A stretch of DNA of 64,000 nucleotides from a virus: positions 254,268-318,267 of IMG/VR virus record IMGVR_UViG_3300022902_000004; one strand, 5' to 3'. Under the pieces are notes generated by a model, which made no database searches, was not told where the DNA came from, and worked only from the letters and a program-made list of their open reading frames with translations. Every line of letters begins with the position of its first letter. The stretch's first letter is position 1. Of this stretch, positions 968-56,112 are shown piece by piece. Position numbers and translations under genes: made by a program.

Positions 968-1014
968 TCCCCGGGGACATATATATTATACCACGTTTTT
1001 CACCGTCTTACACG
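968..1014 (-). promoter_or_regulatory. repeated early-promoter cassette (extended -10 TGGTATAAT plus upstream GTGTAAG element)
   Basis: Plus-strand ccccggggacatatatattataccacg...cttacacg. On the minus strand this is the TGnTATAAT consensus. Confidence 0.5.
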
Positions 1015-1358
1015 AGTTCGAACACATCCTTTTCATTATCATCAACCAAATATCGATTCCACTCTGGTGAATGAATGCGTCCATCCCGGAGGCGATCCCA
1101 TGGGCGTGCCCAGGAAACAGTTCCACCAGGAACCGGCAAAGAAACCCGCTTTGGGTTCTCTTCATCACGCATGTATAGCGCCCATGATTCATCAGGATCA
1201 GCTTTTCGAACATGCCGTCGGGCCAACTTCCAAGCCGTGGAAGGGTTATTGATCGATGTGCTGATTGCAATGACAAGATCCGGATCCCCCAGGGGTACTC
1301 CGGTTGAACGATGTTTGCATGGGTATGCGTCGAAAACGTAATCGATAAGCTCAGTCAT
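1008..1358 (-). CDS. hypothetical protein
   Basis: 116 aa ORF with GAAGGTG RBS; its stop lies in the upstream element of the promoter copy. Confidence 0.5.
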   Translation of the reverse strand: MTELIDYVFDAYPCKHRSTGVPLGDPDLVIAISTSINNPSTAWKLARRHVRKADPDESWALYMRDEENPKRVSLPVPGGTVSWARPWDRLRDGRIHSPEWNRYLVDDNEKDVFELV

Positions 1359-1584
1359 TTTGCACCTTCAAGGTATGGGTCCAGTAATCAACCTGCACCG
1401 CATAATGCACTGCGAAGAAAGCCAGAAGTCCTGTCGTAAGAAAACAGAAACTTGTTTCCATAAAACTTGATTCCGTGACTGGGATAAAGCAAGTTACAGT
1501 TACCATTGCCGAAAGTATAAACCCAACCATAAAATAATTGGAAATCCTATCGCACGTTTTCATTTCAGTTTGAAAATCTACCAT
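1351..1584 (-). CDS. small membrane protein
   Basis: ORF 1351..1602 trimmed to the internal ATG at 1584 after the stop of the 1578 gene. Hydrophobic. Confidence 0.45.
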   Translation of the reverse strand: MVDFQTEMKTCDRISNYFMVGFILSAMVTVTCFIPVTESSFMETSFCFLTTGLLAFFAVHYAVQVDYWTHTLKVQND

Positions 1585-1820
1585 TGGGACATGTCCTTGC
1601 ATTCGGCCTTACCGGCTCGACGGGCAGCCTTTTTGAGCACACGACGTTTGCGTGCCTTTTTAGCTGAGGATTTGTGAGAGGAGCGGATGTCACCACCCTT
1701 ACCTCGAAGATTGCCAGAGCTGGAGTTCCGCCCGTAGGCAAAGATATCGCCGCAATCAGGGTACTCGAGGATGGGCCACCTGATATTCGCAGGCAGAGTT
1801 TCGCTTCCGTAAATCTTCAT
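1578..1820 (-). CDS. small basic protein (Lys/Arg-rich C-terminus)
   Basis: ORF 1578..1859 trimmed to MKIYGSE with a GAGGAG RBS. The N-terminal MYILPGMP is read-through of the promoter cassette. Confidence 0.55.
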   Translation of the reverse strand: MKIYGSETLPANIRWPILEYPDCGDIFAYGRNSSSGNLRGKGGDIRSSHKSSAKKARKRRVLKKAARRAGKAECKDMSQW

Positions 1821-1840
1821 GGTCAGCTCCTCGACCGGCA

Positions 1841-1887
1841 TCCCCGGCAATATATACATTATACCACAAAGATAGGTATCTTACACG
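1841..1887 (-). promoter_or_regulatory. repeated early-promoter cassette
   Basis: tccccggcaatatatacattataccac ... cttacacg. Confidence 0.5.
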
Positions 1888-2246
1888 TCGTGATAAAGAT
1901 TTCGGTATGTCTTCGTTTTTTCGTCCCATTCCAAGAATAACCCACAGTCAACGTTTGTTTGTTTTCCGTGAATCCAATATTCGTCACCGTTACGGTGTCG
2001 TACAGCCGGGTTGGGCAAACCTCTGTGACATGACCATGGAACATCTTCATCAGGAAATTCTTGGTTTGGGTTTACAGAATACTCAAATCGGCCGTCTGCG
2101 GCAATCCAAACACGATTGATGCCGTTTGAAACTAGGACCGACACCCCATTAATTCCTGTATCGATGGTGCCATCTATGATCGTGATGTTCTCCGGGCCGA
2201 ACTCGATCATAAACTCAGTCACGATTTTTGCCTGAATTGGTGTCAT
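1881..2246 (-). CDS. MTPxQ-leader superfamily protein (TEFM variant, MORN-like C-terminal repeats)
   Basis: Internal start MTPIQAKIVTEFM. ATGA overlap with 2243..2776. C-terminal NG..E.W repeats. Confidence 0.55.
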   Translation of the reverse strand: MTPIQAKIVTEFMIEFGPENITIIDGTIDTGINGVSVLVSNGINRVWIAADGRFEYSVNPNQEFPDEDVPWSCHRGLPNPAVRHRNGDEYWIHGKQTNVDCGLFLEWDEKTKTYRNLYHDV

Positions 2247-3012: not shown

Positions 3013-3035
3013 GGTGTCTCCTGGGCATGCCGGTA

Positions 3036-3082
3036 TCCCCGGCAACATATCCATTATACCACGACTTACGGAGTTTTACACG
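3036..3082 (-). promoter_or_regulatory. repeated early-promoter cassette
   Basis: tccccggcaacatatccattataccacg ... ttttacacg. Confidence 0.5.
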
Positions 3083-3476: not shown

Positions 3477-3502
3477 GGTAACTCCTGATTCGTAGGGCCG
3501 GT

Positions 3503-3550
3503 ATCCCCGGCAACATATACATTATACCACGAGATGAGACATCTTACACG
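3503..3550 (-). promoter_or_regulatory. repeated early-promoter cassette
   Basis: tccccggcaacatatacattataccacg ... cttacacg. Confidence 0.5.
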
Positions 3551-5184: not shown

Positions 5185-5206
5185 GTTTTTCTCCAGAGGG
5201 GAACCA

Positions 5207-5253
5207 TCCCCGGCAACATAGTAATTATACCACGTTGGGGGACGTTTTACACG
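5207..5253 (-). promoter_or_regulatory. repeated early-promoter cassette
   Basis: ccatccccggcaacatagtaattataccacg ... ttttacacg. Confidence 0.5.
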
Positions 5254-5694: not shown

Positions 5695-5715
5695 TTAGGG
5701 CTCCGTAGTTTCAGG

Positions 5716-5768
5716 TCCCCTTCCCCGGGAACATATACATTATACCACGATTTGAGCCATCTTACACG
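5716..5768 (-). promoter_or_regulatory. repeated early-promoter cassette
   Basis: ccccttccccgggaacatatacattataccacg ... cttacacg. Confidence 0.5.
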
Positions 5769-6750: not shown

Positions 6751-6778
6751 GAGAACCTCTTTGTTATGGCGCCGGCCT

Positions 6779-6824
6779 CCCCGGCAACATATACATTATA
6801 CCACGAAATGACGACTCTTACACG
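6779..6824 (-). promoter_or_regulatory. repeated early-promoter cassette
   Basis: ctccccggcaacatatacattataccacg ... cttacacg. Confidence 0.5.
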
Positions 6825-7626: not shown

Positions 7627-7654
7627 GATGCGCTCCTGGCGTTCTGGGACCATC

Positions 7655-7702
7655 GGTCCGGATTACATAAATATTATACCACACTTTTCGCACTCTTACA
7701 CG
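7655..7702 (-). promoter_or_regulatory. repeated early-promoter cassette
   Basis: gattacataaatattataccaca ... cttacacg. Confidence 0.45.
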
Positions 7703-8352: not shown

Positions 8353-8373
8353 GGTCTCTCCTGGGTCAAGTCA

Positions 8374-8423
8374 CCATTCCCGGTGACATATCCATTATAC
8401 CATGAAACGACGACTCTTACACG
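8374..8423 (-). promoter_or_regulatory. repeated early-promoter cassette
   Basis: ccattcccggtgacatatccattataccatg ... cttacacg. Confidence 0.45.
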
Positions 8424-9557: not shown

Positions 9558-10226
9558 TTAGTCATTCACCTTCGACATCATTTCGACGTCAGTGTAGAGA
9601 TTCCACACACACCAGTAGTTGTAAACGGCGTTGCCGCCGTCGGTGTATGTCAAGCCCATGCCATCGGCCTTCTTTTTCGCCTTTTCGGCAATATATTTTG
9701 AAAGCACTTTTGCCTTGTCAAGATCACTGACTTTTACATCTTCCAGGAGCGAAATCATTTCCTCAAGACTGCCTTTCAGTCCATGGAAGTGGTACGTCAT
9801 ATTTTTATAACTCGCGGCGTGCTTCTTGGCACGTTTCGCCAGCACTTCTGGTGCAAGGTCTTCGAACTCCCAATCACCTGGGATTCCGTAACAGAAACTC
9901 TCGGTATAATCGTTCCGGTTACCACGGCCGACGAAGAGTTGGGGATCCACCAGGCATGCCTCGTACTCTTTCTGACCGAGACCAATCACATGGCAAATCA
10001 AATCGCTCCAGGAATCATCACCGCACCCGATTTGGGTGTGATATTGCCACATCTTGTTATCGAGGTTGTTTCGCAGGAAATCGAAATGATTCTCGAAAGC
10101 CTGCGTGTACTGCGTTCCCTTCTGCATGAAGTAAATCTTGATAGCCTTGTAGTCGGTGGTTTTGGTGCCCCACCCGAACTCGTCGACCTGGTTCCAGAAC
10201 TCTTGACGTGTCATTACCATTTTCAT
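9558..10226 (-). CDS. hypothetical protein (222 aa)
   Basis: AGGAGAGG RBS. Confidence 0.6.
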   Translation of the reverse strand: MKMVMTRQEFWNQVDEFGWGTKTTDYKAIKIYFMQKGTQYTQAFENHFDFLRNNLDNKMWQYHTQIGCGDDSWSDLICHVIGLGQKEYEACLVDPQLFVGRGNRNDYTESFCYGIPGDWEFEDLAPEVLAKRAKKHAASYKNMTYHFHGLKGSLEEMISLLEDVKVSDLDKAKVLSKYIAEKAKKKADGMGLTYTDGGNAVYNYWCVWNLYTDVEMMSKVND

Positions 10227-10239
10227 GTCCTCTCCTGGT

Positions 10240-10287
10240 CATCCAGGGTACATAGATATTATACCACGATTTTCGTAGTTTTACACG
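10240..10287 (-). promoter_or_regulatory. repeated early-promoter cassette
   Basis: atccagggtacatagatattataccacg ... ttttacacg. Confidence 0.45.
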
Positions 10288-12183: not shown

Positions 12184-13302
12184 TTAGCTCGCCACAGCGG
12201 CGGCCTTCGCGATGATTTCGATGACCTCATCACCGAGACCATGCGCGTGGAGCGGGCAAATGTTGACCATTCGCTTGCTGGACATCAACTCGTTCCACAT
12301 GTGAATGAGCTGCTCCTCGGGGCAAGCATGAATGAAGTTGACAATGTGAAGAATCTGGGTCTCGTTCCAGTCATTGTCGAGGTTGTGCTCAACCAGTCGT
12401 TCAATCACTACCATCGACTCGGAAGCCTTCATGGCCTCGACACGCTCCTTGTCAATTTCACCGTCGAGCACCATCTTTGCAGTGATGACCCGCTCATACT
12501 TGGTGATGAACTCGCAGAAGGAGATGGTAGCCTCGTTGCCGACGTAACCATCACACAAACCGAAGAAGAAATCCGGTCGAGCCAGACCAGCCAGCTTCGA
12601 CGGCTGCCAACCTTCGATGCCAGCCAGAGCACCATCCAACTTGTGCCATGAGGCAGGCGTCGGCAGAACCTTGTCCGGATCCTGGCCAGCCGGGTCAACC
12701 CGAAGGTGAATCGGGTTCTGGCGAATGAAGTCGATAAGCAGTGGGTCACACTTGCCTTTGGCCCAAGCGATCCAGTCCTCGGTAGTGCACTCGATGTCCT
12801 GAGTCCAGAAACGACGCAGCAGAGCCGGGTCAACCTGGGTCACGTCATACTCGGAACCGAAGTTACCGCAAGCCACAACCCGTGACTCAGGGTGAAGCGT
12901 CATCGGCATACCACCGGCATCATTACCGAGACTACGGTCCAAGACCACCTGGAAGAACGCCTGCATCACCTGAGGCATGGAGCGATTGATTTCATCCAGC
13001 AGGATGACACAAGGCTCCTTACATGCACGCACAAACCAACTCGGCAGCACGAAGGTCGCAACCCCATGCTCCTTGGAGGCGATGAAGTCCGGAATACCGG
13101 TTACCTTCGACTCATCCATGGTCGAACCACGAACATCAATCATGGGTAAACCCAGGACCTCAGCCAGGTCAGCCGCGAGGAAACTCTTACCAATGCCGGT
13201 CGGACCGCGCATCAAGATGGCATCCTTGGCAGGCAGTTTGGGGGCGAGAAACTTGAAGGTTGCGATATCCATTTGACAGACTCCATTCATGCAGCGGGTC
13301 AT
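12184..13302 (-). CDS. AAA+ ATPase, MoxR/CobS-like (AAA_5)
   Basis: Walker A GPTGIGKS and Walker B ILLDEINR. Alternative start MDIATFKF at 13272, which has a GGAG RBS. Confidence 0.8.
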   Translation of the reverse strand: MTRCMNGVCQMDIATFKFLAPKLPAKDAILMRGPTGIGKSFLAADLAEVLGLPMIDVRGSTMDESKVTGIPDFIASKEHGVATFVLPSWFVRACKEPCVILLDEINRSMPQVMQAFFQVVLDRSLGNDAGGMPMTLHPESRVVACGNFGSEYDVTQVDPALLRRFWTQDIECTTEDWIAWAKGKCDPLLIDFIRQNPIHLRVDPAGQDPDKVLPTPASWHKLDGALAGIEGWQPSKLAGLARPDFFFGLCDGYVGNEATISFCEFITKYERVITAKMVLDGEIDKERVEAMKASESMVVIERLVEHNLDNDWNETQILHIVNFIHACPEEQLIHMWNELMSSKRMVNICPLHAHGLGDEVIEIIAKAAAVAS

Positions 13303-13304
13303 CC

Positions 13305-13349
13305 CGCCTTACACTTCTATTATACCACGATTTTCTGACTCTTACACAA
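13305..13349 (-). promoter_or_regulatory. repeated early-promoter cassette (variant)
   Basis: ccttacacttctattataccacg ... cttacaca. Confidence 0.4.
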
Positions 13350-13996: not shown

Positions 13997-14017
13997 GGGT
14001 CTCCATGGGTCCGGGAA

Positions 14018-14066
14018 CCTCCCCGGCAACATAAACATTATATCATGCCAGGAGACGTTTTACACG
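14018..14066 (-). promoter_or_regulatory. repeated early-promoter cassette
   Basis: ctccccggcaacataaacattatatcatg ... ttttacacg. Confidence 0.45.
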
Positions 14067-16033: not shown

Positions 16034-16342
16034 TCAAGCGCCCGGTTCATCCCGTTCGCATATACATTGTACCACACTTGGGTGCATTTTACACGTGCTG
16101 GGCCGCAAGGCTGCTTCAAAATCATATTCTGCGTCATCCATGGTTTCATAGGACACATTCAAAACCTTGATGCCTTTCTTGTCGTAGTGAGCCGCCGAGC
16201 CGAGCGGGTGAACTGCGACTCGACCATTGCAAAGTTCCAACCACCACACGGGTTCATAATCGATCTGCGGCCACTCATCCATGTGCGTAACATAACCGGT
16301 GCCGACCATTTTGGTGACGATGGTGAGTTGTTCAGGTGACAT
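16034..16342 (-). CDS. MTPxQ-leader superfamily protein (MSPEQLTIVTKMVG)
   Basis: Trimmed; family D. Confidence 0.5.
   Translation of the reverse strand: MSPEQLTIVTKMVGTGYVTHMDEWPQIDYEPVWWLELCNGRVAVHPLGSAAHYDKKGIKVLNVSYETMDDAEYDFEAALRPSTCKMHPSVVQCICERDEPGA
16048..16095 (-). promoter_or_regulatory. repeated early-promoter cassette (variant TGGTACAAT)
   Basis: catcccgttcgcatatacattgtaccaca ... ttttacacg. Confidence 0.4.
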
Positions 16343-19144: not shown

Positions 19145-19217
19145 GGCGTCTCCAGCGTTTCCCGTCGACCAACCCGGCCAACATATCTATTGTATCACGT
19201 TTTGATGGCTCTTACAT

Positions 19218-19391
19218 GCAGGTTTTTTCAATTGACCGAGCCTGTAACACGTAGTTGACAATCCTAACAACGTCGTCGGCGCTGCAACCGAGCGCCAGCA
19301 GCTCACCGCAAACAGCAGGTGTCACAGCCTCCAGGTCATCGCCGAGCTTATCACACATCTCGTTAATCAAATCAAGCATCACTTCACCCAC
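19218..19391 (-). CDS. small paralog family B protein (MLDLINEM), 57 aa, below the ORF-track threshold
   Basis: Manual translation MLDLINEMCDKLGDDLEAVTPAVCGELLALGCSADDVVRIVNYVLQARSIEKTCM; flanked by two promoter cassettes. Confidence 0.45.
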
Positions 19392-19481
19392 CGTTTCCCG
19401 TCGACCAACCCGGCCAACATATCTATTGTATCACACGTGAACGTGCTTTACACGTGAACGCATACCACAAAAAACGCAACC

Positions 19482-19878: not shown

Positions 19879-19924
19879 GATGAACCTCGTAGTTTCGTGC
19901 TGACCAACCCGGCCAACATATATA

Positions 19925-20146
19925 TTATACCACGCTTTTGGCCTGTTTTACACGTGCTGCATAAATTAAATGCCTGGCCCATTCGATACCTTCTGCCTTG
20001 GCAACTAGTTTGGCTGCCTTAGCATCAAGCAAAGGTGAATCACCACAGCTCCGACGTGATCTATAGATAAGCTGCTGGGCTTCATGCGATAGGCGGCGTG
20101 CCTCTGCAAACATGGCGTTGTCAATGGCGTCGATTTCAATCTTCAT
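19925..20146 (-). CDS. hypothetical helical protein
   Basis: 73 aa; stop in the promoter cassette. Confidence 0.45.
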   Translation of the reverse strand: MKIEIDAIDNAMFAEARRLSHEAQQLIYRSRRSCGDSPLLDAKAAKLVAKAEGIEWARHLIYAARVKQAKSVV

Positions 20147-20756: not shown

Positions 20757-20820
20757 GGTCACTCCAGTTTCTGGTCCCCTTCCCCGGGGACATGTCCATT
20801 GTATCACACGTGAACGTGTT

Positions 20821-21057
20821 TTACACGTTGCCGATGACCTTCTCCCGGATTGATTCCAGGCTGCGCATCTTGGCTTTCAAAGTGTCGACGATGTCCTGTG
20901 CTTCGACTGCGCAGCCGATACCATCACCGGCTTGTCGACGACTTGCTATGTCGTTGCGGTCGACGGCAGCCTGGTGTTGAAGGAACACTGTACTGTCGGC
21001 TTCATCAAGCATCCAGAGTAGGTGTGTCTGCTCGTCGGCTGTGAACTTGCTGGTCAT
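20821..21057 (-). CDS. small paralog family E protein (MTSKFTADEQTHLL)
   Basis: Trimmed; paralog of 21876..22094. Confidence 0.5.
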   Translation of the reverse strand: MTSKFTADEQTHLLWMLDEADSTVFLQHQAAVDRNDIASRRQAGDGIGCAVEAQDIVDTLKAKMRSLESIREKVIGNV

Positions 21058-21160
21058 GGCGGCTCCGTTTGGTGGGCCGGTTATCATCCCCGGCAACATA
21101 TACATTGTATCACACGTGAACGTGTTTTACACGTGAACGCATACCATGTTTGAGGCCGTT

Positions 21161-22094: not shown

Positions 22095-22271
22095 GATGAA
22101 CTCCTGTGCACCGGATGGTGTATCCTGCTCGATTCCCGAGCACATAATCATTATAACACGTGGGAACCCTTTTTACACTCGGTGGGCGCACCTTTTGTGC
22201 GAGCTACACAAGAATGCCGGCGGTTATTCACATATATTTCGGCCCAATGGGATCAATGGGTTAGGCGGTGG

Positions 22272-25960: not shown

Positions 25961-26297
25961 TGTTTACCAACTCTCTTGTGTGGCGTTGATTGAATAACAG
26001 GAGCTCATAATTGAAGCCCGACTTGAATGGCCAAGTACAAAGTACGCCTGCTGGGACCTCGACATACTGCGTAAACTCGTCCCAGTCGCACGTGTCGCCA
26101 CCAGCTTCATCAAACATGACATAGCCATAGCCTTCCGGTCGGATCCTGCCAACAATCTTTCGACCATCTGGAATCACAAACGAAAACCTGACAGCAACCT
26201 CGCCATTCGTGTCATTGGTTTCCCATGATTCAAATAAGGATATGTCGGGTGCCATTCCCATCGCAATCGTTAGAACCGCTGCCTGTCCTTCTGTCAT
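25950..26297 (-). CDS. MTPxQ-leader superfamily protein (MTEGQAAVLTIAMGMAPDISLF)
   Basis: Trimmed; AGGAGGGGAG RBS. Confidence 0.55.
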   Translation of the reverse strand: MTEGQAAVLTIAMGMAPDISLFESWETNDTNGEVAVRFSFVIPDGRKIVGRIRPEGYGYVMFDEAGGDTCDWDEFTQYVEVPAGVLCTWPFKSGFNYELLLFNQRHTRELVNNDT

Positions 26298-26332
26298 CTC
26301 CCCTCCTTTCACTTATATTATACCACACAGGC

Positions 26333-26650
26333 TCAACGTTTACACACCAGTTCCACTGTCTTTTCCTTCGTTCCGCAGTAGCGTGTATGTATTGTCCCAT
26401 CATGCAGCAATTTCAAGGCGACGTCTTGGTTGATTTTGCCGTGATGATACATTGTTTTGTCATACCGTACCTCGATGATAGTGAAGAGGTCGTCTTTTTT
26501 TGCAGGTTTTGCATCACATTCTTCCCATCGTGGCTGACTTCTTCGCAATGGGCAGGTTTCGCAATCTTCATGGTCAAAACAATGTCCGGAGTCGATGTCC
26601 AAGCTCTTCCGGAACCTCATGACATCACCTTTTTTGAAGCTGTCAATCAC
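26333..26650 (-). CDS. Cys/His-rich small protein (GTG start?)
   Basis: AAGGAAG RBS. CFDHEDCETC ... YCG motifs. Confidence 0.45.
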   Translation of the reverse strand: MIDSFKKGDVMRFRKSLDIDSGHCFDHEDCETCPLRRSQPRWEECDAKPAKKDDLFTIIEVRYDKTMYHHGKINQDVALKLLHDGTIHTRYCGTKEKTVELVCKR

Positions 26651-26981: not shown

Positions 26982-27253
26982 TCGGTCCCACCTGCAAGTT
27001 CAAGGTCACCGCCGTATATCGATCTCAGTTCGCCGTTGCACAACACAAGAACCAGACCGGGATTGTGATTATGCGCCGGCGCTATCGTCTCTGTGACAAG
27101 CAATGTCTCTCCGGTATGGACGATCTTTGATGTACAGGAATCCCCGGCGGTGGTATGCGGGTATTCGTCGCATGCGGAGGGCACGAAGCATCCTGGAGGA
27201 TAAGCATGGAGCGTTTTGCCGGGCGAAACCCCGAATATGTTGCCGATCTTCAT
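26978..27253 (-). CDS. hypothetical protein
   Basis: Trimmed to MKIGNIFGV with a GGAGGA RBS. Confidence 0.5.
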   Translation of the reverse strand: MKIGNIFGVSPGKTLHAYPPGCFVPSACDEYPHTTAGDSCTSKIVHTGETLLVTETIAPAHNHNPGLVLVLCNGELRSIYGGDLELAGGTE

Positions 27254-27309
27254 AAATCCTCCGCTCACTTATATTATATCATGACCAGACGGGTTTTACA
27301 CGTGCGAGG

Positions 27310-30907: not shown

Positions 30908-30965
30908 GTTCGTTTCCTCTTTCCCATCCCGGGAACATATACATTATACCACGAAATGATGACTC

Positions 30966-31424
30966 TTACACGTTACCGAACATTTCTTTGTTGATCAGGC
31001 GACGGGCGTAACTAAGGCCATCGATTTTAGCCGACACCATGGCTGCCCGTTGGAGTTCTGCGGCGGCAACCTCAAGGCTCACGCTTGGGTTCTGGCCGGC
31101 CGCAGCATGTTGTCCTTGTGTCTCAGACAATCGCATACCCTCAGCGAACAAGGCGTTGTCAACGAGGCCAAGATGGGCGTCAGCTTCCATACTCAGCCCA
31201 GCTTTGGTTCGCATGTAGTGTGGGTGGTCGGTAACCTTTTCGATGGTCTCAAGCCAAGCCTCCTTAGCATCAACGACCTTGCCGTGCGGTCCTAGGCTTC
31301 GCTGCCCGCCTGGACCATATTCGTTGGTATAGTGTTCCAATGCGAACTTCAGGTCATCGAGCATCTGGCCGGTAACCGTGATGGTGTATTCAGTATCAAG
31401 ATTCTGTGGTTTCTTGCAGGGCAT
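30966..31424 (-). CDS. hypothetical protein
   Basis: Trimmed to MPCKKPQNLD with an AAGGAG RBS. Confidence 0.55.
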   Translation of the reverse strand: MPCKKPQNLDTEYTITVTGQMLDDLKFALEHYTNEYGPGGQRSLGPHGKVVDAKEAWLETIEKVTDHPHYMRTKAGLSMEADAHLGLVDNALFAEGMRLSETQGQHAAAGQNPSVSLEVAAAELQRAAMVSAKIDGLSYARRLINKEMFGNV

Positions 31425-31672: not shown

Positions 31673-31817
31673 CTTGAACTCCTGTCTCCGTCCCTGCTCG
31701 GGTCACCCCCGAGCACATAAATATTATACCACGTTTTGAGGCATCTTACACGAAACGTAAGTGAAAGTTTCAATTACAAATTAAAGTTTCACTTTCACTT
31801 ACCATAGCGCCTAGGTA

Positions 31818-32601: not shown

Positions 32602-32683
32602 GAGAACCCCTTTGTTATGGTCACCGGCATACCCGGCAACATAAACATTATACCACGATTTTCTGACTCTTACACGAGTCGAA

Positions 32684-32938: not shown

Positions 32939-33005
32939 GTTCAGTCCTGCAATTCATGGAAGGCAGCGTGCCTTACAAATATATTATACCATGTCTGGAG
33001 ACGTT

Positions 33006-33236
33006 TTACACGAGTTCTAAATCTACAACGATGAACCCTTGCTCTTTCCCGTTCGGCAACCTGCAAACCGCTGTCACAGGAAATTCAACCCCATTGTGTT
33101 CCCATGCAACTCGTTGAACAATCATGACTTTTCCAAGCACAGCTTTTGAATAATGCCGATGATCAAAGAATCCTTTCAATTTGACCTTATCACCTGCCTT
33201 GAACTTGTTTCGATTGTTGGGCTTTGGGCACATCAT
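33006..33236 (-). CDS. small beta-barrel-like protein (family A-like, KAGDKVKLKG)
   Basis: 76 aa. Confidence 0.45.
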   Translation of the reverse strand: MMCPKPNNRNKFKAGDKVKLKGFFDHRHYSKAVLGKVMIVQRVAWEHNGVEFPVTAVCRLPNGKEQGFIVVDLELV

Positions 33237-34600: not shown

Positions 34601-34660
34601 TTGTCTTCCTTCCATGGTCGTCCCGACCAATACGTTTATTATACCACAAATTCGTGTTTC

Positions 34661-35089
34661 TTACACGAGGGCAAAGTAAATCGAAGGAAGTAGGAACAAT
34701 ATGTGAATGAGCTGATCAATTGTAATGAAGAGAATTAGGTCCAACGGCCGACTAAATCCAGCCTTGAATGCCTTGATTCCATCCAAGCGCACCATTGGCA
34801 TCTTACGCACATATTTTGCCCAGAGATAGACAGGAATGTACGTGTCCTCAACAAAATGGGATGTGAATAGAATCAAAAAGCTGGCAACCAGCTCCGGAAC
34901 ACTCAACTCCATGAGCGCCAACAACGGCATGAAACCGGTGGCATAAATCAGGCAATGACGAGCCCGCCACTTCCAATCTGATGATTTCTTCATGGCTTCA
35001 TTGTGTGTCTGGAAAACCCAGTCTACAACGAAGTGATTGAATACGAGCAATGAAAACAGTGAGCCGGCAGCAATGAGTGTTTCAAGCAT
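34661..35089 (-). CDS. integral membrane protein (4 TM)
   Basis: Multiple hydrophobic helices. Confidence 0.55.
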   Translation of the reverse strand: MLETLIAAGSLFSLLVFNHFVVDWVFQTHNEAMKKSSDWKWRARHCLIYATGFMPLLALMELSVPELVASFLILFTSHFVEDTYIPVYLWAKYVRKMPMVRLDGIKAFKAGFSRPLDLILFITIDQLIHILFLLPSIYFALV

Positions 35090-35098: not shown

Positions 35099-35329
35099 TT
35101 ATGGTTTGCATTTGCAATTGTTACAATTTCCACATAAATCAGTATGATGGCGTTCCATATCGTGACAACGATGATTTGGGCCGTACGGCTCATATCGCGG
35201 AGGCTTATTCGGTTCAAGCACCGTCTTCACACCTGCCAAGACAACCAGCGCGGTGGCTACCACAGCAACCTGCACTTTCAATTGAATGTTCCGTATTAGT
35301 TTTCTCATTTGTTTCCTTATTACCATCAT
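35099..35329 (-). CDS. secreted/membrane-anchored Cys-rich small protein
   Basis: N-terminal TM/signal plus CGNCNNCKC. Confidence 0.45.
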   Translation of the reverse strand: MMVIRKQMRKLIRNIQLKVQVAVVATALVVLAGVKTVLEPNKPPRYEPYGPNHRCHDMERHHTDLCGNCNNCKCKP

Positions 35330-35357
35330 GACTGATTATAACACATTTCGTGCAGGA

Positions 35358-36095
35358 TTACACAGAGGAACCAAGAAACCTGAGCACACCCGATTTTATT
35401 GATGCAACGGATGAATCGAACGCCGCCTCAGACGCGTCGATGTAGAAAAAGTTCTCTTTGAACAGTTTTTCGTATGCCTCTCTGTTCCTTTCAACAGCTT
35501 TCCAAGACCGAATGACGTCCTCTTCATCCACACCTCGGCCACCTTGGGCAGCTCGGTTCACGTTCCTGGCCAACGACACTTCCAATGGAACATCGACATA
35601 AATCATGCCGACTTCATATCCAGCATTAGCAAACTCTTTGAACTGTTTTGAAATCTCTCTGTAGTTGCCACCGGTACCGTCAATCAAAACATTATCGCCG
35701 GTGCCCATGAGTGACTTTTTTAGGTGCTTGGCTGCATTGCGTGCCCGGGAGAACAGCGTCATATTCTGACTGAAGATGGCCCTGAGTCGACGGTATTCTG
35801 GCTCTGCATCGGACATTGCCTGTTCGTCACCAACTCCCTGGGCTTCCAAGAATGTTGCCTTGGCCAATTTGTATTCTTCAAGTAAGTCCTTTCTATCAAG
35901 CGGGATACCTGCCTTCTTGAGCGCCGCCTCATAATCGTCGTCCGGGTTGACTACAGTTAGCTGGCTTCCAATACCAAGTTTTCTAATTGCTGTTGATTTT
36001 CCAGATGCAGGTCCGCCGGCCATGAAAATAGCAGAAGGTTTGGCTTGGAGTGCCTCCCGGAGAACCCGTCGAATATATTGTCGTAGCATTTTCAT
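35358..36095 (-). CDS. P-loop nucleoside/polynucleotide kinase-like protein with CTS-like leader
   Basis: AIFMAGGPASGKSTAIRKLG Walker A; N-terminal MKMLRQYIRRVLRE. Confidence 0.65.
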   Translation of the reverse strand: MKMLRQYIRRVLREALQAKPSAIFMAGGPASGKSTAIRKLGIGSQLTVVNPDDDYEAALKKAGIPLDRKDLLEEYKLAKATFLEAQGVGDEQAMSDAEPEYRRLRAIFSQNMTLFSRARNAAKHLKKSLMGTGDNVLIDGTGGNYREISKQFKEFANAGYEVGMIYVDVPLEVSLARNVNRAAQGGRGVDEEDVIRSWKAVERNREAYEKLFKENFFYIDASEAAFDSSVASIKSGVLRFLGSSV

Positions 36096-40384: not shown

Positions 40385-40442
40385 GGTAACCCCCTCCGGA
40401 ACACCCCGGGAACATATATATTATACCACGTTTTCCTTTGTC

Positions 40443-40643
40443 TTACACGAAATCTTCGAAAGATCGGGGAATACCCCGCTTGGACGTTTTCTTGATCATT
40501 GAAGGCCGGTCAGGCCGGGATCGACAATGAGGGCATTCCCCATCAGGGCGTTTCTTTTCTTTCCATTCGTCACATGGATCACAGTAATACGCATCGAATA
40601 TTTCATTCAAGTGAACCTGATTGTTGCAAACCTCACACCTCAC
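40443..40643 (-). CDS. small zinc-ribbon protein
   Basis: CEVCNN ... CDPCDEW ... CPHC. Confidence 0.5.
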   Translation of the reverse strand: MRCEVCNNQVHLNEIFDAYYCDPCDEWKEKKRPDGECPHCRSRPDRPSMIKKTSKRGIPRSFEDFV

Positions 40644-42323: not shown

Positions 42324-42467
42324 TTGTGCCGTCCGTATTCTAAAAAAGTGCCAATCCCCAGAGAACCAACATCGTAACTATCCAAATAGTAAACATGTGC
42401 ATCCTCCAGTTCCTATAAACATTATACCACGATTTACGGCCGTTTACACAAAACTGATGTTATTTGA

Positions 42468-46957: not shown

Positions 46958-47030
46958 GTTTGTCCTACTGTTGCGTATAAATATTGAAGAGAAAGCTCTC
47001 CATTGTCGTTACATTAATATTATACCACGC

Positions 47031-47303
47031 TTAGAGACATCTTACACGATATAGGTTCTTAGCAAGCACTAATTTTAGGTTTCTTTCGTACTCAAACCGG
47101 CACCCGAGATTCCACGGGGTAAGATTGTACGATGTCCATTTCGGCCACTCAGATGACGAGCGTTTTTTCCCGGTCGACGTTGTACCGTTTGGTGCATTGA
47201 TCTTTGTAATCAATCGAGGAATAGCTCCACCTTCTTCTTCCGTCAGATAGGTGATAGAAACTAAGTCGCCCACCTCGAATTTTGAAATAGATGACTCGGC
47301 CAT
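47031..47303 (-). CDS. small beta-barrel-like protein (FEVGDLVSI, family A-like)
   Basis: Abuts the purA-like gene. Confidence 0.45.
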   Translation of the reverse strand: MAESSISKFEVGDLVSITYLTEEEGGAIPRLITKINAPNGTTSTGKKRSSSEWPKWTSYNLTPWNLGCRFEYERNLKLVLAKNLYRVRCL

Positions 47304-51557: not shown

Positions 51558-52967
51558 TTAACCCCACGTGTTCTTGCGGACTTCGTCCAGCGTGTAATCC
51601 TGTGTCACCTCACCATCCTCAAACACCGTCTCGAGCAGGTCAGCATCTGATGCCGAAGACTCCGGAACGGTCATGATTTTATTTCCGTCTCTACCTGTCA
51701 TTGCAACCAAGGCATGTCGGCCCGGCTTCGAGCGCTTACCTGGAGCATCAATCGGATCCTTGAACACGTCTCGGCCTTCACCATTTACGCTAATCCAAGA
51801 ACACTTGAATGCAAACTTCTGGGTGTCACGGTTCATCTTCTGGAGCAAGGCTCCTCCTGACCCGAATGCGATATTATCGGCACTCCAACCAGCAGCCATG
51901 ATTGCATCAAGAATCTGGGAAATCACAAAGCGGTCAACTCCATCCCCTTGGATGATACGCACGTGAGGATCTAAGACCTTGTAACCTTTCTTGTTGGTGG
52001 TAAATCCAAAGGCCTCCCCAAGACGCTCCAGACACTCCAGGACAACACTCTGTGGGTCTCCTGAGTCCGGCCGTACGACCAGCGTTCCATCTCGAGCCAG
52101 GATTTCTGCTTTCAGTTCCTGACCCCACAATTCTGAGCACGCTTTGTAAATGTCGTAGCTATCTGAAACGCATGCAACCAGTCCGGTTGGGTATTGCTCC
52201 AGCATGTTTCGAAAGGCATTGACCTCGCCTTCCTTTCCCCACGATGTAATTGTCGAGTGCTCACTGGCTGGAATGCTGAATCCTGCCATTTGAGTGTTGT
52301 AGTGGTTCCTGGCCAATACCAAGGCTGCCACCGTATCTGTTCCCATGAAGTTGACAAGGTGACCGAAGCCACCGATGCCTGCAGTTTCAACAGACGACAC
52401 ACCACGGAAACCGAAGTCGTGCAGTTTGAAGTAGATGCCTGCTGGTGTTCCGGATTTCTCCAGTGCCGCAGCAATAATCAACCGGCTGGCCCGACTAATC
52501 GTTGCCACGGTGCACGGGTACCAAACCTGAACCAGCAAGGTCTCGAGGTAATTGGTCAACCACCAACACTTCGGGTCTGTATTCTCAATCGTCAACATCA
52601 CGTTGTGGGTCGGAACAACTGTTCCTTCCCTGACCGCTTTGATTCTGACGGGCAACCGCCCATCATGCTCATTGAGAATGTGCTCCCAGCCTTCTCGGTT
52701 GAAACACGTATCGTTGCCGAAATGCAGATGGAAGAATTCCTCTGCTTCGTCGATGCGTTCCTGTGTTACGACCTGTCCCTCGAGGTATTCCTGCAAGAAG
52801 TACTGCAGTCCCACGAAGACAACATCGTCGAATTCACCGCCGCGACTCTCAAAGTAGGAGTAAACGGTCTCAGTTCCCTCAGGATATTGCTTGGAATGTG
52901 ATACCTTGTATGAATCTGTCATCAAGATAATGTTTTTTGGATCGATGTTCTTGTTGTAGTAGCTCAT
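51558..52967 (-). CDS. nadV: nicotinamide phosphoribosyltransferase (NAMPT)
   Basis: 469 aa with NAPRTase-family motifs (GTDTVA..., FGFRGVSS). AAGAGGTGAAAGC RBS. Confidence 0.85.
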   Translation of the reverse strand: MSYYNKNIDPKNIILMTDSYKVSHSKQYPEGTETVYSYFESRGGEFDDVVFVGLQYFLQEYLEGQVVTQERIDEAEEFFHLHFGNDTCFNREGWEHILNEHDGRLPVRIKAVREGTVVPTHNVMLTIENTDPKCWWLTNYLETLLVQVWYPCTVATISRASRLIIAAALEKSGTPAGIYFKLHDFGFRGVSSVETAGIGGFGHLVNFMGTDTVAALVLARNHYNTQMAGFSIPASEHSTITSWGKEGEVNAFRNMLEQYPTGLVACVSDSYDIYKACSELWGQELKAEILARDGTLVVRPDSGDPQSVVLECLERLGEAFGFTTNKKGYKVLDPHVRIIQGDGVDRFVISQILDAIMAAGWSADNIAFGSGGALLQKMNRDTQKFAFKCSWISVNGEGRDVFKDPIDAPGKRSKPGRHALVAMTGRDGNKIMTVPESSASDADLLETVFEDGEVTQDYTLDEVRKNTWG

Positions 52968-53968
52968 GCTTTCACCTCTTTCTTCGATGTGATCTTCACT
53001 TTCTTCGGGGACAGTCTTGTACGTTCCTTTGGCATGTTTTTTTCAATGTGCTCCACTAGTGCATTGCAAAGCGGAACGTGCTCATCGCAAACGAAATTTG
53101 AAATCGTTGACGGCAAAACATCCAGTCCACACTTAAGCCTTTCGATTTTGACCCATTCGACTTCGTACAAATCATCTGTCGCCTCAATGGGTCCCCACAA
53201 GTACACACCGGTGAAAAACACAGTCGTGATTTTATCCTGACGTCTTCGATAGCGCCAGTCGTCGATAACGAAAGAGCCAATGTATTTGAGTGGCTTGCTC
53301 ACCTCAATGTTCCCACCGGTTTCCTCGTTGAATTCTCGGAGAGCTCCTTGCTCATGGGTTTCTCCGGGCTGCAAAAAGCCGCCAGGGAACCGTAGCTTGG
53401 CACCTTCATACTTACGACCCATCAAGACTTCATTCGTCTTGTAGTTGATGACAGCCATGTCGGTCGTGCCATACGCAGTCGGGTAACGATTGTATGAACC
53501 GTAAATGACACCGCGGCGGAAGTCGATTGAACCGTTGGCACGTAGTGCTGCTTCGGCTCGAACCTGTGTTCCGCTGATGTAAATCTTCTGCTCCAACTCA
53601 ACGGTTGGGAAGACACCATGGTATCGCAACATGAAGCTGTCTCGGCTACCGTAAAGGGTAACATCTCCAACAGGACACACTTCTCGAATCTTCTTGTCTA
53701 AGAGGGCAGACCAGGGCTTGTCGAATTCTTGGTCTGAAATTGGTAGAACAATAATCTCAGGGTACTTTTCCTGAATCATCTTTTTTCGTAGATCGTAATC
53801 CAGTGGATTCCTTTTGTCTCCCAAACCGGGACAAATCCCGAGGAACACGATCACTTTGTTGTGGGTCTCAGCCACTTCATCCAGAACACCAACGTGTCCT
53901 GCATGCAACTCCGGAATCTGAAATCTCCCGACCACGACTCCAATCTCACGCTTTTTATTATCACTCAT
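52964..53968 (-). CDS. natV: bifunctional NMN adenylyltransferase / Nudix ADP-ribose pyrophosphatase
   Basis: N-terminal GRFQIPELHAGH nucleotidyltransferase motif; C-terminal Nudix box GGFLQPGETHEQGALREFNEETG. ATGA overlap with nadV. Confidence 0.85.
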   Translation of the reverse strand: MSDNKKREIGVVVGRFQIPELHAGHVGVLDEVAETHNKVIVFLGICPGLGDKRNPLDYDLRKKMIQEKYPEIIVLPISDQEFDKPWSALLDKKIREVCPVGDVTLYGSRDSFMLRYHGVFPTVELEQKIYISGTQVRAEAALRANGSIDFRRGVIYGSYNRYPTAYGTTDMAVINYKTNEVLMGRKYEGAKLRFPGGFLQPGETHEQGALREFNEETGGNIEVSKPLKYIGSFVIDDWRYRRRQDKITTVFFTGVYLWGPIEATDDLYEVEWVKIERLKCGLDVLPSTISNFVCDEHVPLCNALVEHIEKNMPKERTRLSPKKVKITSKKEVKA

Positions 53969-54112
53969 TTATACACTCTTCCTTGCTAGGACCACAATCA
54001 ACCTAAGCCTCCCGGCTGTGATTATGATGTTTCGCTGTTTGCCTCCCGGCATTTACGAGAACCCCTTGTCCTCATGATCTAATTATACCCGCCACCATGG
54101 CGATGTACAAAA

Positions 54113-55147
54113 CTATGCTCCGTGCGGTTTATTCTCCTGCTGAGTTGCAGATGAAACCTTCACAAACTCGTGGCGTTCATACAACTCCGGTACTGTTCGT
54201 GCTCCTGAGTATGACAGGCCACTTCGAATCCGCGCCGCGAAGGGTTTCATTACACTAGCAACAGATCCCTTTGGATCAATCATCGCTGTGGTACCTTCAA
54301 TGTATTGTGGGTCCTTGTCACCAGGCTTCTTACGGCGATGCTGGGCAACATTAGATGCCATACCTTCATACGCGATCTTGCCATTCCATGTTCCACCGTT
54401 TGGGCACTCATTCGTTCCTGCGAGAACAGATCCAAGCATCACAAAGCTTGCACCGGCGGCGAGGGCCTTTACAGCGTCACCACTGTTTCGAATGCCACCG
54501 TCTGCAATAATGGGTGCCTCGCTGCGGGATATTTTGACACGACAAACAGACTCAAGCGTCGGCAACCCGTGACCGGTTACAACCCGAGTGGTGCAAACAC
54601 TTCCTCCACCGATGCCAACACGAACCATATCAGCACCTGCTTCATAAAGAAACTCAGCACCAGCTGCTGTGGCAACGTTGCCAGCAATGATCAGAATTTT
54701 ATCACCAAACTCATCCCGTAATCGGTGAATTGCGTCTTTAACATTCTTATGATGTCCATGGGCTACATCGATTAGGAAAATCTTTGTCCCACATAATTCG
54801 TATGCTGCTTTGGCACGTACAAAAAAGTCCCCTGTCGCGCCAATTGCAACTCCGTATAGCGGAGCAGTCACTTTGCGAATGATGTCTAGCTGTTCCTCAA
54901 CGGTATTGTAACGATGGATAATACCCATCCCACCGCAATCACCCAAGGCATTGCACATCTCGTCTTCACAAATCGTTGTCATCGGCGCCGCAATGACGGG
55001 AAGATACAAATAACCAAACCCTCGAGGCAGGCCAGCACCAATCACAATGTCATCCCTCGAGGGGATCGATGATTTGCGTGGTACCAGAAGTACATCATCA
55101 AAACAAATTGTGTCATACGCAAATGCGTTATGTGCATATCGTGTCAT
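54113..55147 (-). CDS. GMP reductase / IMP dehydrogenase family protein lacking CBS domains (GuaC-like)
   Basis: FDDVLLVP and GIGGGSVCTTR catalytic loop. ~344 aa, trimmed to MTRYAHNAF with a GGAG RBS. Confidence 0.75.
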   Translation of the reverse strand: MTRYAHNAFAYDTICFDDVLLVPRKSSIPSRDDIVIGAGLPRGFGYLYLPVIAAPMTTICEDEMCNALGDCGGMGIIHRYNTVEEQLDIIRKVTAPLYGVAIGATGDFFVRAKAAYELCGTKIFLIDVAHGHHKNVKDAIHRLRDEFGDKILIIAGNVATAAGAEFLYEAGADMVRVGIGGGSVCTTRVVTGHGLPTLESVCRVKISRSEAPIIADGGIRNSGDAVKALAAGASFVMLGSVLAGTNECPNGGTWNGKIAYEGMASNVAQHRRKKPGDKDPQYIEGTTAMIDPKGSVASVMKPFAARIRSGLSYSGARTVPELYERHEFVKVSSATQQENKPHGA

Positions 55148-55148
55148 A

Positions 55149-56054
55149 TTACTTATCTCCCCATGATTTTGTTCGCAAGTGAATCGAGAACAGCTTTGCA
55201 GCTCGAGCACCAATTGCTTTCCTTACCTCTCGGGTTGGCTCAAACTCGCCTTCACCTTCGATCATGACATCTTCGATCATTGCAGGAATGATTTTCTGCA
55301 TGTCAGCGTAACCCACATCTTGCGGGAACTTGTCAAGCACATGCTCCAGGCGCATATCGGTAACCCACTCTTCAGCAATTGCTTGGGCGCCATTCAGCTT
55401 CTTCCTTGCATCGGGATCCAAGATGGTGTCACCTTTCGATGCCCGCTCAGAAAACTCAGCAGTCTTGTGTTTTGCCATCAGTCGCTTACCGCTCGGCATT
55501 GCAACCTCTTCGATTGGCCGGAGCACGACACCTTCAGATACTTTATCCTCGATGATACCTCGGCGTTTGGCAACCCGAGACGGTTTATCTCGTTCAATCG
55601 TGACTGCCGCAAGGTTGGCTGGGATCCGTTCATATGGAACGAACTCAAGCCCAAACTTAAGGACAAACTCTTCAGCCCGAGGAACAGGCAACCATTCATT
55701 GCCGAGTTTGACTTCAAATGCGATGAAGAGTAGTTTTGGTCCATATGTGTGCGACATTTTCTGTTGAGCGCCGCCATATGCCTCACCGAAAATGGTTACA
55801 TCAGCATGCCCAAGCTCGTGAAAGATGTCAATGAGTCCTTGCTGATAAAACAAGTCGGTGAACTCTTGATGCTTCGACCCGCCAGAAAAGAATCGCAATA
55901 CGGCATTGTTCTTATTCTTCGGTGTCTTGTTGGTATAACGGATATGTGCCGATGTGCCATGAACTTTCTCCATGGCATAACACTCCTTGAAAAGCAGGAT
56001 GTTTTGGTCTTTGTATAGATTTGAGATCTTGGCGTATCCAATAATGTCCCCCAC
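55149..56054 (-). CDS. rnl2: RNA ligase, Rnl2 family (probable GTG start)
   Basis: Motif I EKVHGTS (T4 Rnl2 KIHGTN). ~300 aa. Confidence 0.75.
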   Translation of the reverse strand: MGDIIGYAKISNLYKDQNILLFKECYAMEKVHGTSAHIRYTNKTPKNKNNAVLRFFSGGSKHQEFTDLFYQQGLIDIFHELGHADVTIFGEAYGGAQQKMSHTYGPKLLFIAFEVKLGNEWLPVPRAEEFVLKFGLEFVPYERIPANLAAVTIERDKPSRVAKRRGIIEDKVSEGVVLRPIEEVAMPSGKRLMAKHKTAEFSERASKGDTILDPDARKKLNGAQAIAEEWVTDMRLEHVLDKFPQDVGYADMQKIIPAMIEDVMIEGEGEFEPTREVRKAIGARAAKLFSIHLRTKSWGDK

Positions 56055-56069
56055 GGGACCTGTGCCCCT

Positions 56070-56112
56070 TATTTATAACTCAATTATATCATAAAAATTG
56101 TCAGTTTACACG
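56070..56112 (-). promoter_or_regulatory. early-promoter cassette (TGATATAAT variant) driving rnl2-guaC-natV-nadV
   Basis: Minus strand GTGTAAAC ... TGATATAAT, ~25 nt upstream of the start. Confidence 0.45.

Follow-up and report, generated by a model that had tools for sequence, protein, structure and literature searches.

A repeated promoter-like cassette with a variable stem-loop at its predicted transcript start in an uncultured large marine phage

Why would a phage keep dozens of copies of one short module between its genes, all in the same orientation? The question is raised by a 64-kb stretch of an uncultured large marine phage (IMG/VR record IMGVR_UViG_3300022902_000004), referred to here as the window; positions count from the window start, and the cassettes are read on the minus strand. 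An earlier inspection of the letters, hereafter the sequence-only reading, had claimed at least 30 copies of one conserved promoter cassette in which an extended -10 element with lineage-specific additions heads short transcription units. Our analysis suggests, with a probability of about 0.6, that the repeat serves a clade of uncultured large marine phages as its standard promoter module, combining an extended -10 element, a lineage-specific -35 box and a 5' stem-loop leader.

A bipartite scan for GTGTAA-N17/18-TATAAT with TG at -15/-14 recovered 31 genuine copies spanning 1014-56112, all on the minus strand, where about 0.3 would be expected by chance; the claimed copy number thus holds. The module is about 65 bases long and has the general form CGTGTAARA-N15-TGGTATAAT-rTAtATG. 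Its core, TGGTATAATGTATATG, gave 25 matches at up to three mismatches, 23 of them on the minus strand, compared with 0.31 ± 0.53 in shuffled sequences, none of which (0/100) reached 25. The strand bias was also apparent for TGnTAnAAT, with 34 minus-strand and 4 plus-strand occurrences. The bipartite scan gave no plus-strand site of comparable quality, the nearest being a weaker GTGTTA-N18-TGATATAAT at 21568-21600. The array extends past window position 1, with two further copies at about 0.2 and 1.3 kb beyond it (about 33 in total), and ends there ahead of larger genes that include ClpP and a helicase; at the other side, the 56.1-64 kb part of the window holds no copy. Of the 32 coordinates given by the sequence-only reading, 30 are distinct real copies, while 19455 and 21110 mark the upstream ends of two copies that the list already has at 19400 and 21080, and one weaker copy (35303-35364) was not in the list.

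Aligned into a position profile, the 30 copies with a 17-bp spacer give a clear consensus in four blocks. The first consists of C-36 (25/30 copies), GTGTAA at -35 to -30, which is invariant save for one ATGTAA, and then R-29 and A-28. The second comprises conserved Y-17 and G-16, T-15 and G-14 in 30/30 copies with (G) next, and a -10 hexamer at -12 to -7 that reads TATAAT in 25 copies and TACAAT in 5. An AT-rich discriminator then ends in T-A-T, with T-1 in 29/30, G+1 in 25/30 and T+2 in 25/30 copies, and C+6, G+8, G+9 and (G+10) form the fourth block. The spacer between GTGTAA and the -10 hexamer measures 17 bp in 30/31 copies. The conserved T-1/G+1 falls 7 nt past the -10 hexamer, and such a pyrimidine -1/purine +1 pair about 7 nt past the -10 is the start context favoured by bacterial RNA polymerase.

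These features match those of sigma70/sigmaA extended -10 promoters: TG plus TATAAT is present, all copies (31/31) lie on the gene strand, and a predicted purine start follows about 7 nt after the -10. A TTGACA-like -35, which is optional for this class, is lacking. GTGTAA shares 3/6 positions with TTGACA, and a TTGACA/TATAAT scan picked up 0 cassettes; TTGACA-type promoters in 1-20 kb stood at shuffle level (26 vs 19 ± 5). Upstream of -37 the information content is about 0, the region is coding, and no AT-rich UP-like element is found. Strand, spacing, proximity to the ribosome-binding site and start context all bear out, as far as sequence can, the identification of TGnTATAAT as an extended -10 with lineage-specific additions heading short units. 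The status given to GTGTAA has to be revised, however: it is not an additional upstream element but occupies the -35 place at 17-bp spacing, substituting for a canonical -35. Two other promoter types were considered and rejected: for a T4 late-type second class, TATAAATA showed 7 occurrences and no pattern, and for an N4-type hairpin promoter, the hairpin of the cassette comes after the start, and the -10 of the promoter is of sigma70 type.

Large phages often bring their own transcription machinery, and the odd -35 box could suit a different sigma region 4, so the cassette might be recognised by an RNA polymerase or sigma factor that the phage encodes, not by the host primary sigma. We consider this very unlikely. 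A perfect TGnTATAAT, a 17-bp spacer and a start 7 nt further on are characteristic of primary sigma, the motifs of known phage sigmas and polymerases are different, and the window yielded no RNA polymerase or sigma domain. Pfam and PHROGs searches of the 131 window open reading frames (ORFs), mostly unannotated, likewise revealed no MotA, AsiA or helix-turn-helix family.

The position of the cassettes relative to genes is also promoter-like. In 29/31 copies the cassette is followed by a Shine-Dalgarno (SD) sequence and by the start codon of an ORF of 40 or more amino acids, at +10 to +55 (median +35). The stop codon of the preceding gene had been placed, as a rule, inside or within 2 nt of the upstream element. 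In 12-13/31 copies the stop of the upstream ORF is indeed the TAA of GTGTAA (GTG TAA, Val-stop), but in 3 copies it is the TAA within TATAAT, and in at least 8 it lies 3-28 nt before the cassette. Because of the stops in GTGTAA and TATAAT, two of the three reading frames are closed by the module. The predicted N-terminal extensions MYILPG, MDMLPG and MFMLPG were rightly dismissed as spurious, being literal translations of ATGTATATATTGCCGGGG, ATGGATATGTTGCCGGGG and ATGTTTATGTTGCCGGG, that is, of discriminator plus hairpin. A density of one cassette per 1-4 genes describes about two thirds of the intervals; others contain 7-15 genes (26345 to 22178, 56111 to 47047). Intrinsic terminators in 1-20 kb are at shuffle level (26 vs 20 ± 5). 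The units are runs of small ORFs without assigned function, together with some RNA-repair and metabolic genes, and since this is their content they are most likely early or host-takeover units. Early timing and reading by host sigma70 alone were assumptions of the sequence-only reading, and we treat both as such.

Contigs identical to the window occur in marine metagenomes, with lengths of up to 184 kb and a single one of the 0.2-1 Mb class. Those designated L008-L011, L059-L068 and L095-L097 are identical to the window and uninformative, their apparent gene differences being differences in gene calling. Beyond these, a 20-kb megablast query matched none of 50,697 phage records, and protein searches reached no more than 36% identity, for the most part to huge uncultured phages, with the closest deposited phage proteins less than 30% identical. 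The cassette is present in L030, L069-L078 and L095. L030, an IMG/VR contig with 76-86% nucleotide identity to the window, carries cassettes at orthologous positions, and the L069-L078 contigs, whose MoxR/CobS-like ATPase is 91, 88, 64, 60 and 59% identical to that of the window, carry it as well. These relatives keep the same box, spacing, -10 and ATG start context. For this ATPase family 997 homologues were found.

Seven orthologous cassette pairs shared by the window and L030 show which parts are maintained. The -35 box is 95% and the extended -10 is 96% identical, compared with 51% for the spacer, 71% for the discriminator, about 70% for the leader and 68% for the upstream coding sequence. 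Both boxes are kept while the spacer drifts; therefore, selection acts on promoter function. As far as sequence comparison goes, this block-wise pattern fits a promoter, unlike a repeat that is maintained evenly as a target of recombination or of an endonuclease. Furthermore, a search of 185,579 bacterial and archaeal genomes gave 16 single matches to the composite motif, where about 17 were expected by chance, none of them with a hairpin. The box-focused selection between orthologues and the absence of the composite from bacterial genomes both add to the case for a repeated promoter. Motif scans of IMG/VR and metagenomes mostly returned chance single matches, with only L018, and possibly L023/L027, related. 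The latter (contig Ga0233439_10000159, 110 kb) has a cassette-like site, cGTGTAAgaaggcgctagtacgTGGTATAATctatatgttggttgggaatggttccc, and no nucleotide similarity to the window; it may be a further clade member. Literature searches found no earlier description of GTGTAA or TGGTATAAT phage promoters.

The third component of the cassette had been described as a downstream GC box. It has no fixed sequence: we found instead a covarying stem-loop at the predicted 5' end of the RNA. The stem-loop occupies +1 to about +20 of the predicted transcript in about 25/31 copies, with a stem of 5-8 bp. The mean minimum free energy (MFE) of +1 to +26 is -8.4 kcal/mol compared with -2.9 for random same-strand 26-mers, and 19/31 copies, but 3.5% of the background, fold at -8 or below. 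Only at offsets of -6 to 0 from the predicted start is there a folding signal, and no excess folding is seen upstream (mean MFE about -2 at offsets -60 to -12). The relatives behave alike, with 20/35 copies at or below -8 kcal/mol against 4.4% of background, and their 5' hairpins have different stems and carry GGGA or GGGAG in the loop.

Stems vary while pairing is kept, as seen in GUUGCCGG/CCGGYR, GUCCCC/GGGGAC, UGCUCG/CGAGCA, GUCACC/GGUGAC, UUGGCC/GGUCRA and UAAGGC/GCCUU. In a covariation alignment fitted with one offset per sequence, both-side changes occurred in 7/10 pairs (29 cells), and the covariation score was 0.425, compared with 0.161 ± 0.023 for shuffles (0/500 reach it) and 0.05-0.13 for slid partners; as a negative control, the structure shifted by 2 columns scored at background. 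For 49 distinct hairpins of the window and related contigs, with 20 different 5' arms among them, an alignment-free swap test gave -9.56 kcal/mol for native hairpins and -5.83 for 5'/3' chimeras (p = 3e-17). Given the predicted start, 20/26 folded leaders have 0-2 unpaired 5' nucleotides. A hairpin in fixed register, with +1 to +6 paired, proved too rigid a model: it gave a mean of 3.4 contiguous pairs against 2.5 ± 0.2 for shuffles (maximum 3.06) and 2.1 for swaps.

Several functions for this hairpin were discarded. As an intrinsic terminator it would lack the following U-tract, and there is no excess of terminator-like sites over shuffles; as an RNase III processing site of T7 type (an irregular duplex of about 20 bp) its stems of only 5-8 bp are too short; and as a restriction or methylation site (CCGG/CCCGGG) it is at odds with a window in which CCGG is not avoided (297 observed vs about 209 expected). 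No Rfam family matches the hairpin. In a plus-strand reading, the cassettes (at 961-978 and elsewhere) present the hairpin followed by the A/T-rich complement of discriminator and -10, and one copy was flagged as terminator-like; cassettes read in reverse might weakly stop antisense transcription.

The stem-loop could also be the specific binding site of a protein, for example for boxB-like antiterminator loading, as the operator of a translational repressor or as the target of a RegB-like endoribonuclease. G+8/G+9 (GGGAG/GGGA in distant relatives) are conserved in or beside the loop while the stems vary, the 5-8 bp stem and the purine-rich loop of 4-6 nt resemble boxB-type hairpins, and the lack of intrinsic terminators between units would leave long read-through RNAs that antitermination or processing would help. 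However, the conserved G's keep register to the start and not to the loop; some copies have them in the stem, others in the loop. The cassette has no boxA-like partner and no Rfam match, and among the window proteins no N-like or RegB-like protein was recognised, the only hit being a weak Phage_ProQ_C_like match (E = 0.003). We view a protein-binding hairpin as possible, though doubtful.

Homology between the window and its relatives repeatedly ends inside cassettes. L018 is 100% identical to window 22810-19902 and then resumes with the unit after cassette 19217, two units being missing; the crossover lies within 20 nt common to cassettes p19953 and p19217, ATATGTTGGCCGGGTTGGTC. Relative to L030, homology switches off within the spacers of p40448 and p32675, and the p32675 cassette is an isolated 82-nt homology island. 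L072, L073 and L074 have a common ATPase gene and unrelated upstream genes, joined via a chimeric cassette, and in L069 the ATPase module is at a different place than in the window. Overall, 7/34 homology end-points fall inside cassettes, compared with a uniform expectation of 5.6% (p = 0.002). The junctions between related phages had gone unmentioned in the sequence-only reading. As read from these alignments, cassettes serve as crossover sites, whereas hot-spot status beyond the gene-boundary expectation is unsupported. The MoxR/CobS-like AAA ATPase gene (12184-13302, minus strand) and its VWA/DUF2201 partner (29573-30907, minus strand) are 17 kb apart, each with its own cassette; the two genes lie within about 2 kb in L075 and L077, and this is therefore evidence of module relocation.

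Such junctions invite the view that the repeat is kept for a non-transcriptional reason, as a mobile or recombinogenic linker (a 'mobile regulatory cassette' like the promoter-early stem-loops of T4-like phages) or a homing-endonuclease target, its promoter features being incidental. Besides the junctions within cassettes in L018, L030 and L072-L074 and the different module order in L069, the presence of HNH and NUMOD3 endonuclease genes would suit this view, as would sub-families with common spacers, which suggest that copies were duplicated or converted from one another. Between orthologues, however, nothing but the two promoter boxes is kept, with the spacer free, whereas a pure target would be evenly conserved. 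Orientation, start-codon distance and start-site context are all promoter-like, and breakpoints are not above the gene-boundary expectation. We consider this explanation improbable. One sub-family, formed by p21132, p20826 and p19453 (19393-21133), shares TGATACAAT, and a duplicated GTTCACGTGT yields the palindrome ACGTGTAAAACACGT across its -35 box; L069:2518-2570 is a collapsed form of a cassette of this sub-family, without GTGTAA.

Under the promoter-module reading, the cassettes would be a family of strong promoters, and the extended -10 (T-15 G-14 n TATAAT) would be read by a primary (sigma70/sigmaA-type) holoenzyme, with C-G-T-G-T-A-A-R-A at -36 to -28 standing in for a canonical -35 at the canonical distance. 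The G that closes the conserved T-A-T-G, 7 nt past the -10, would be the first transcribed base, and because this G is the predicted start, the RNA would open with a 5-8 bp stem-loop in about 25/31 copies. The 5' sensor of RNase E requires unpaired 5' nucleotides. The hairpin most likely shields the 5' triphosphate from 5'-end-dependent decay by RppH and then RNase E or RNase J, and would give each unit one common insulated leader, after which the ribosome-binding site and start codon would drive a short unit of small ORFs. According to work cited as refs 93 and 95 in PMC3997798, RppH requires unpaired 5' nucleotides and 5'-terminal stem-loops stabilise mRNA. Since it is repeated about 33 times in one orientation, the module may also act as a homology patch where recombination deletes, inserts or swaps units.

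Several observations weigh against this scheme. The register of the hairpin varies, its 5' arm ending anywhere from +6 to +12, and C+6, G+8 and G+9 are fixed relative to the start and not to the loop, so that they fall in stem or loop depending on the copy; these fixed positions could mean a sequence signal instead of, or besides, structure. Six copies, with short leaders, have no hairpin, and orthologous units can differ in having one; because of this the hairpin appears dispensable for firing. Its probable role in stabilising the mRNA is purely inferred. The box is equally awkward, being invariant although GTGTAA matches TTGACA at only 3/6 positions. Extended -10 promoters need no -35 element (PMC2988021), and host sigma alone therefore does not explain the invariance. 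As to recombination, the 7/34 end-points are not enriched relative to the 17.5% of gene boundaries that bear a cassette, and some indels between close relatives (L072 vs L074, L075 vs L076) lie away from cassettes.

The invariance of the box would be explained if the cassettes were factor-dependent promoters of the 'middle' type, with the host sigma at the -10 and a phage-encoded or phage-injected protein on CGTGTAARA, by sigma appropriation as with T4 MotA/AsiA. The box is 9 bp long, centred near -32, invariant in the 31 copies apart from the ATGTAA given above, and kept down to 59% protein identity in the relatives, a conservation far above what a -35 beside a TGn -10 needs. T4 middle promoters follow the same logic, with a sigma70 -10 (often TGn) and a phage box for the -35 (PMC2988021), and four extra GTGTAA words in the gap at 21365-21596 could be a binding-site array. 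Set against this are the lack of a recognised MotA, AsiA, sigma or helix-turn-helix protein among the window ORFs and of any visible separate canonical promoter set that could express the factor first. The units are small-ORF arrays typical of immediate-early regions, and GTGTAA outside cassettes stands at its expected frequency. An activator of this kind is a tentative possibility. We consider it rather unlikely that CGTGTAARA and the G-rich hairpin are together the DNA and RNA sites of new phage proteins (a sigma-appropriation-like activator and possibly a hairpin-binding antiterminator, protector or nuclease) in a programme private to this widespread clade; if this were true, the GTGTAA cluster at 21365-21596 would be a regulatory site.

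This cluster lies in a 232-nt non-coding gap and has GTGTAA at 21460, 21442, 21401 and 21373 along with two ACGTGTAcc; outside cassettes, the whole 64 kb holds 14 GTGTAA words where 14.7 are expected. The equivalent gap in L069 also carries three GTGTA(A) words. The cluster could consist of decayed cassettes or form a binding-site array. Next to it, at 21568-21640 on the plus strand, is the sole cassette-like site of opposite orientation, in which the weaker promoter-like sequence mentioned above is followed by the hairpin-forming TTTCCCCGGGGTGGG. In antisense direction it faces into the gene at 21600-21869 from that gene's 3' end, and its -10 and hairpin are kept in L069 and L018.

Table 1. 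The 31 cassettes of the window, listed from the far end of the array. All transcription start sites (TSS) are predicted from sequence; MFE values are in kcal/mol.
Cassette	Coordinates	Strand	Promoter	Predicted TSS	5' hairpin	Remarks
p56111	56051..56112	-	GTGTAA-N17-TGATATAAT	56076	only from +9	
p47047	46987..47048	-	GTGTAA-N17-TGGTATAAT	47012	none	orthologue L030:526
p42449	42389..42450	-	GTGTAA-N17-TGGTATAAT	42414	none	short leader; L030 orthologue has hairpin leader
p40448	40388..40449	-		40413	MFE -7.2	L030 homology ends within spacer
p35363	35303..35364	-	GTGTAA-N17-TGTTATAAT	35328	none	absent from earlier list
p34666	34606..34667	-		34631	MFE -7.3	L030 orthologue without hairpin
p33011	32951..33012	-		32976	GUAAGGCA/UGCCUUC	
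p32675	32615..32676	-		32640	MFE -12.0	cassette-only homology island with L030
p31751	31691..31752	-		31716	MFE -16.1	
p30971	30911..30972	-		30936	MFE -6.0	heads VWA/DUF2201 gene
p27301	27241..27302	-	TGATATAAT	27266	none	13-nt leader, SD at 5' end
p26345	26285..26346	-		26310	none	13-nt leader
p22178	22118..22179	-	TGTTATAAT	22143	UGCUCG/CGAGCA	
p21132	21072..21133	-	TGATACAAT	21097	MFE -9.3	sub-family with palindrome ACGTGTAAAACACGT
p20826	20766..20827	-	TGATACAAT	20791	GUCCCC/GGGGAC	L069 homology boundary at TSS
p19953	19892..19954	-	18-bp spacer (only copy)	19917	MFE -10.0	left partner of L018 deletion junction
p19453	19393..19454	-	TGATACAAT	19418	MFE -9.7	
p19217	19157..19218	-	ATGTAA, TGATACAAT	19182	MFE -9.7	right partner of L018 junction
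p16094	16034..16095	-	TGGTACAAT	16059	MFE -11.7	
p14065	14005..14066	-	TGATATAAT	14030	MFE -10.0	
p13347	13287..13348	-		13312	MFE -10.4	heads MoxR/CobS-like ATPase gene
p10286	10226..10287	-		10251	CCCUGG/CCAGG	
p8422	8362..8423	-		8387	GUCACC/GGUGAC	
p7701	7641..7702	-		7666	from +8, MFE -6.9	
p6823	6763..6824	-		6788	MFE -10.8	
p5767	5707..5768	-		5732	GUUCCC/GGGGAC	
p5252	5192..5253	-		5217	from +7, MFE -9.3	
p3549	3489..3550	-		3514	MFE -10.1	
p3081	3021..3082	-		3046	MFE -11.6	
p1886	1826..1887	-		1851	MFE -8.1	
p1013	953..1014	-		978	GUCCCC/GGGGAC, MFE -12.2	

Several other genes of the window, all on the minus strand where exact coordinates are given, deserve mention. A phage-encoded transfer-messenger RNA gene at 45351-45710 (Rfam RF00023, 92 bits), with tag peptide ANDNSEYSYAQAA, has no cassette ahead of it. 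A nucleotide and NAD metabolism block at 51558-55213 has no internal cassette and comprises NAMPT (51558-52967), an NMN-adenylyltransferase/Nudix fusion (52964-53968) and an IMPDH/GMP-reductase-like gene (54113-55213). RNA-repair-type genes are scattered over 10770-11072, 35358-38499 and 55149-56054 and include a CCA-adding/tRNA nucleotidyltransferase (583 amino acids), an AAA_33/Zeta-toxin-like kinase, an RNA ligase, a protein with a cREC_REC 'cyclic-phosphate processing' domain and a metallophosphoesterase. At 62172-63734, a protein of about 500 amino acids has major-vault-protein shoulder and repeat domains and SPFH/Band-7, which is unusual for a phage. HNH and NUMOD3 ORFs of homing-endonuclease type (Pfam, PHROGs), two members each, lie at about 48.3-49.3 kb and elsewhere.

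A short adenylosuccinate-synthetase-like gene of 338 amino acids (47304-48320) belongs to a PHROGs family labelled PurZ-type. A PurZ assignment was rejected: the enzyme is nearer PurA (E = 5e-54) than PurZ (E = 5e-20 to 4e-16), and because it is far closer to solved PurA than to PurZ, a 2-aminoadenine genome is not indicated.

How does the cassette compare with known systems? Like T4 middle promoters, it has a host-type -10 (often TGn in T4) and a phage box of about 9 bp that replaces the -35 (PMC2988021). The MotA box, (a/t)(a/t)(a/t)TGCTTtA, is 12 ± 1 bp from the -10, whereas CGTGTAARA is 15 bp from it, and no MotA/AsiA homologue was detected among the 131, mostly unannotated, window ORFs. 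T4 early promoters, the 'uber' UP/-35/TGn/-10 type, are alike in their many copies, strong TGn and TATAAT consensus, extra conserved positions and early units of small genes, but their -35 and UP element are still recognisable and they lack a conserved 5' hairpin, so that the window cassette differs on each of these counts (PMC2988021).

On the RNA side, there is a likeness to the 5' stabiliser stem-loops of ompA and papA (Emory, Bouvet and Belasco 1992, as cited in PMC3997798), in which the hairpin also lies within about 2 nt of the 5' end. In that account, a 5'-terminal hairpin blocks RppH and the RNase E 5' sensor, the stem sequence being free while pairing is kept (cited in PMC3997798). 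Those stabilisers belong to single host genes, whereas the hairpin of the cassette belongs to a repeated promoter module and has conserved G's. The lambda nut/boxB and HK022 put sites are also small promoter-proximal RNA hairpins with a purine-rich loop. They occur at one or two sites per genome, whereas the hairpin of the cassette would stand at +1 of every promoter; furthermore, boxA, N protein and the GNRA-like pentaloop of lambda nut have no recognised counterpart here, the loops are heterogeneous, and no second element precedes the SD sequence.

If the promoter-module reading is right, the cassettes provide a testable transcription map for large marine phages without a cultured member, with about 33 predicted start sites spread over about 58 kb. 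As an invariant, non-canonical element, the -35 box would be a handle for finding a host or phage transcription factor. The compact 65-bp module, with its promoter, insulated leader and stops in two frames, is a candidate portable expression part, and the cassettes would offer a mechanism for small-gene swapping among such phages.

The nearest overall parallel is with promoter-early stem-loops (PeSLs), repeated cassettes of early promoter plus stem-loop that bring about the shuffling of modules within the variable regions of T4-like phages (PMC2839356, PMC4122927). The PeSLs of RB49/phi1, T4/PST and KVP40/nt-1 are alike in being dozens of near-identical sigma70-type promoter plus stem-loop cassettes of about 50-70 bp, which lie between small ORFs of variable regions, are oriented with the genes and are followed by an SD sequence and start codon. 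The indel or replacement junctions between related phages also fall in the cassettes, as they do here in L018, L030 and L072-L074. In PeSLs, however, the stem-loop is upstream of the promoter and acts as a terminator, whereas here it lies downstream at +1 to about +20 without a U-tract; no terminator stands ahead of the window promoter, since the -35 or -10 box is often where the upstream ORF ends. PeSLs have an AT-rich UP region and a near-canonical -35 (TTGACA, TTTACW, TTGYVH), whereas the cassette has no UP element and an invariant GTGTAA. PeSLs belong to T4-like myoviruses; among the Pfam and PHROG matches of the window no T4 core gene was seen, and its best deposited relatives are below 30% identical. 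As we read it, the cassette is PeSL-like as a portable promoter module and crossover site, yet it fails three defining PeSL features: the upstream position of the stem-loop, its terminator function, and the UP-like region with a near-canonical -35. This comparison suggests that modular promoter-plus-hairpin cassettes are not confined to T4-like phages, and that a second architecture places the hairpin on the transcript.

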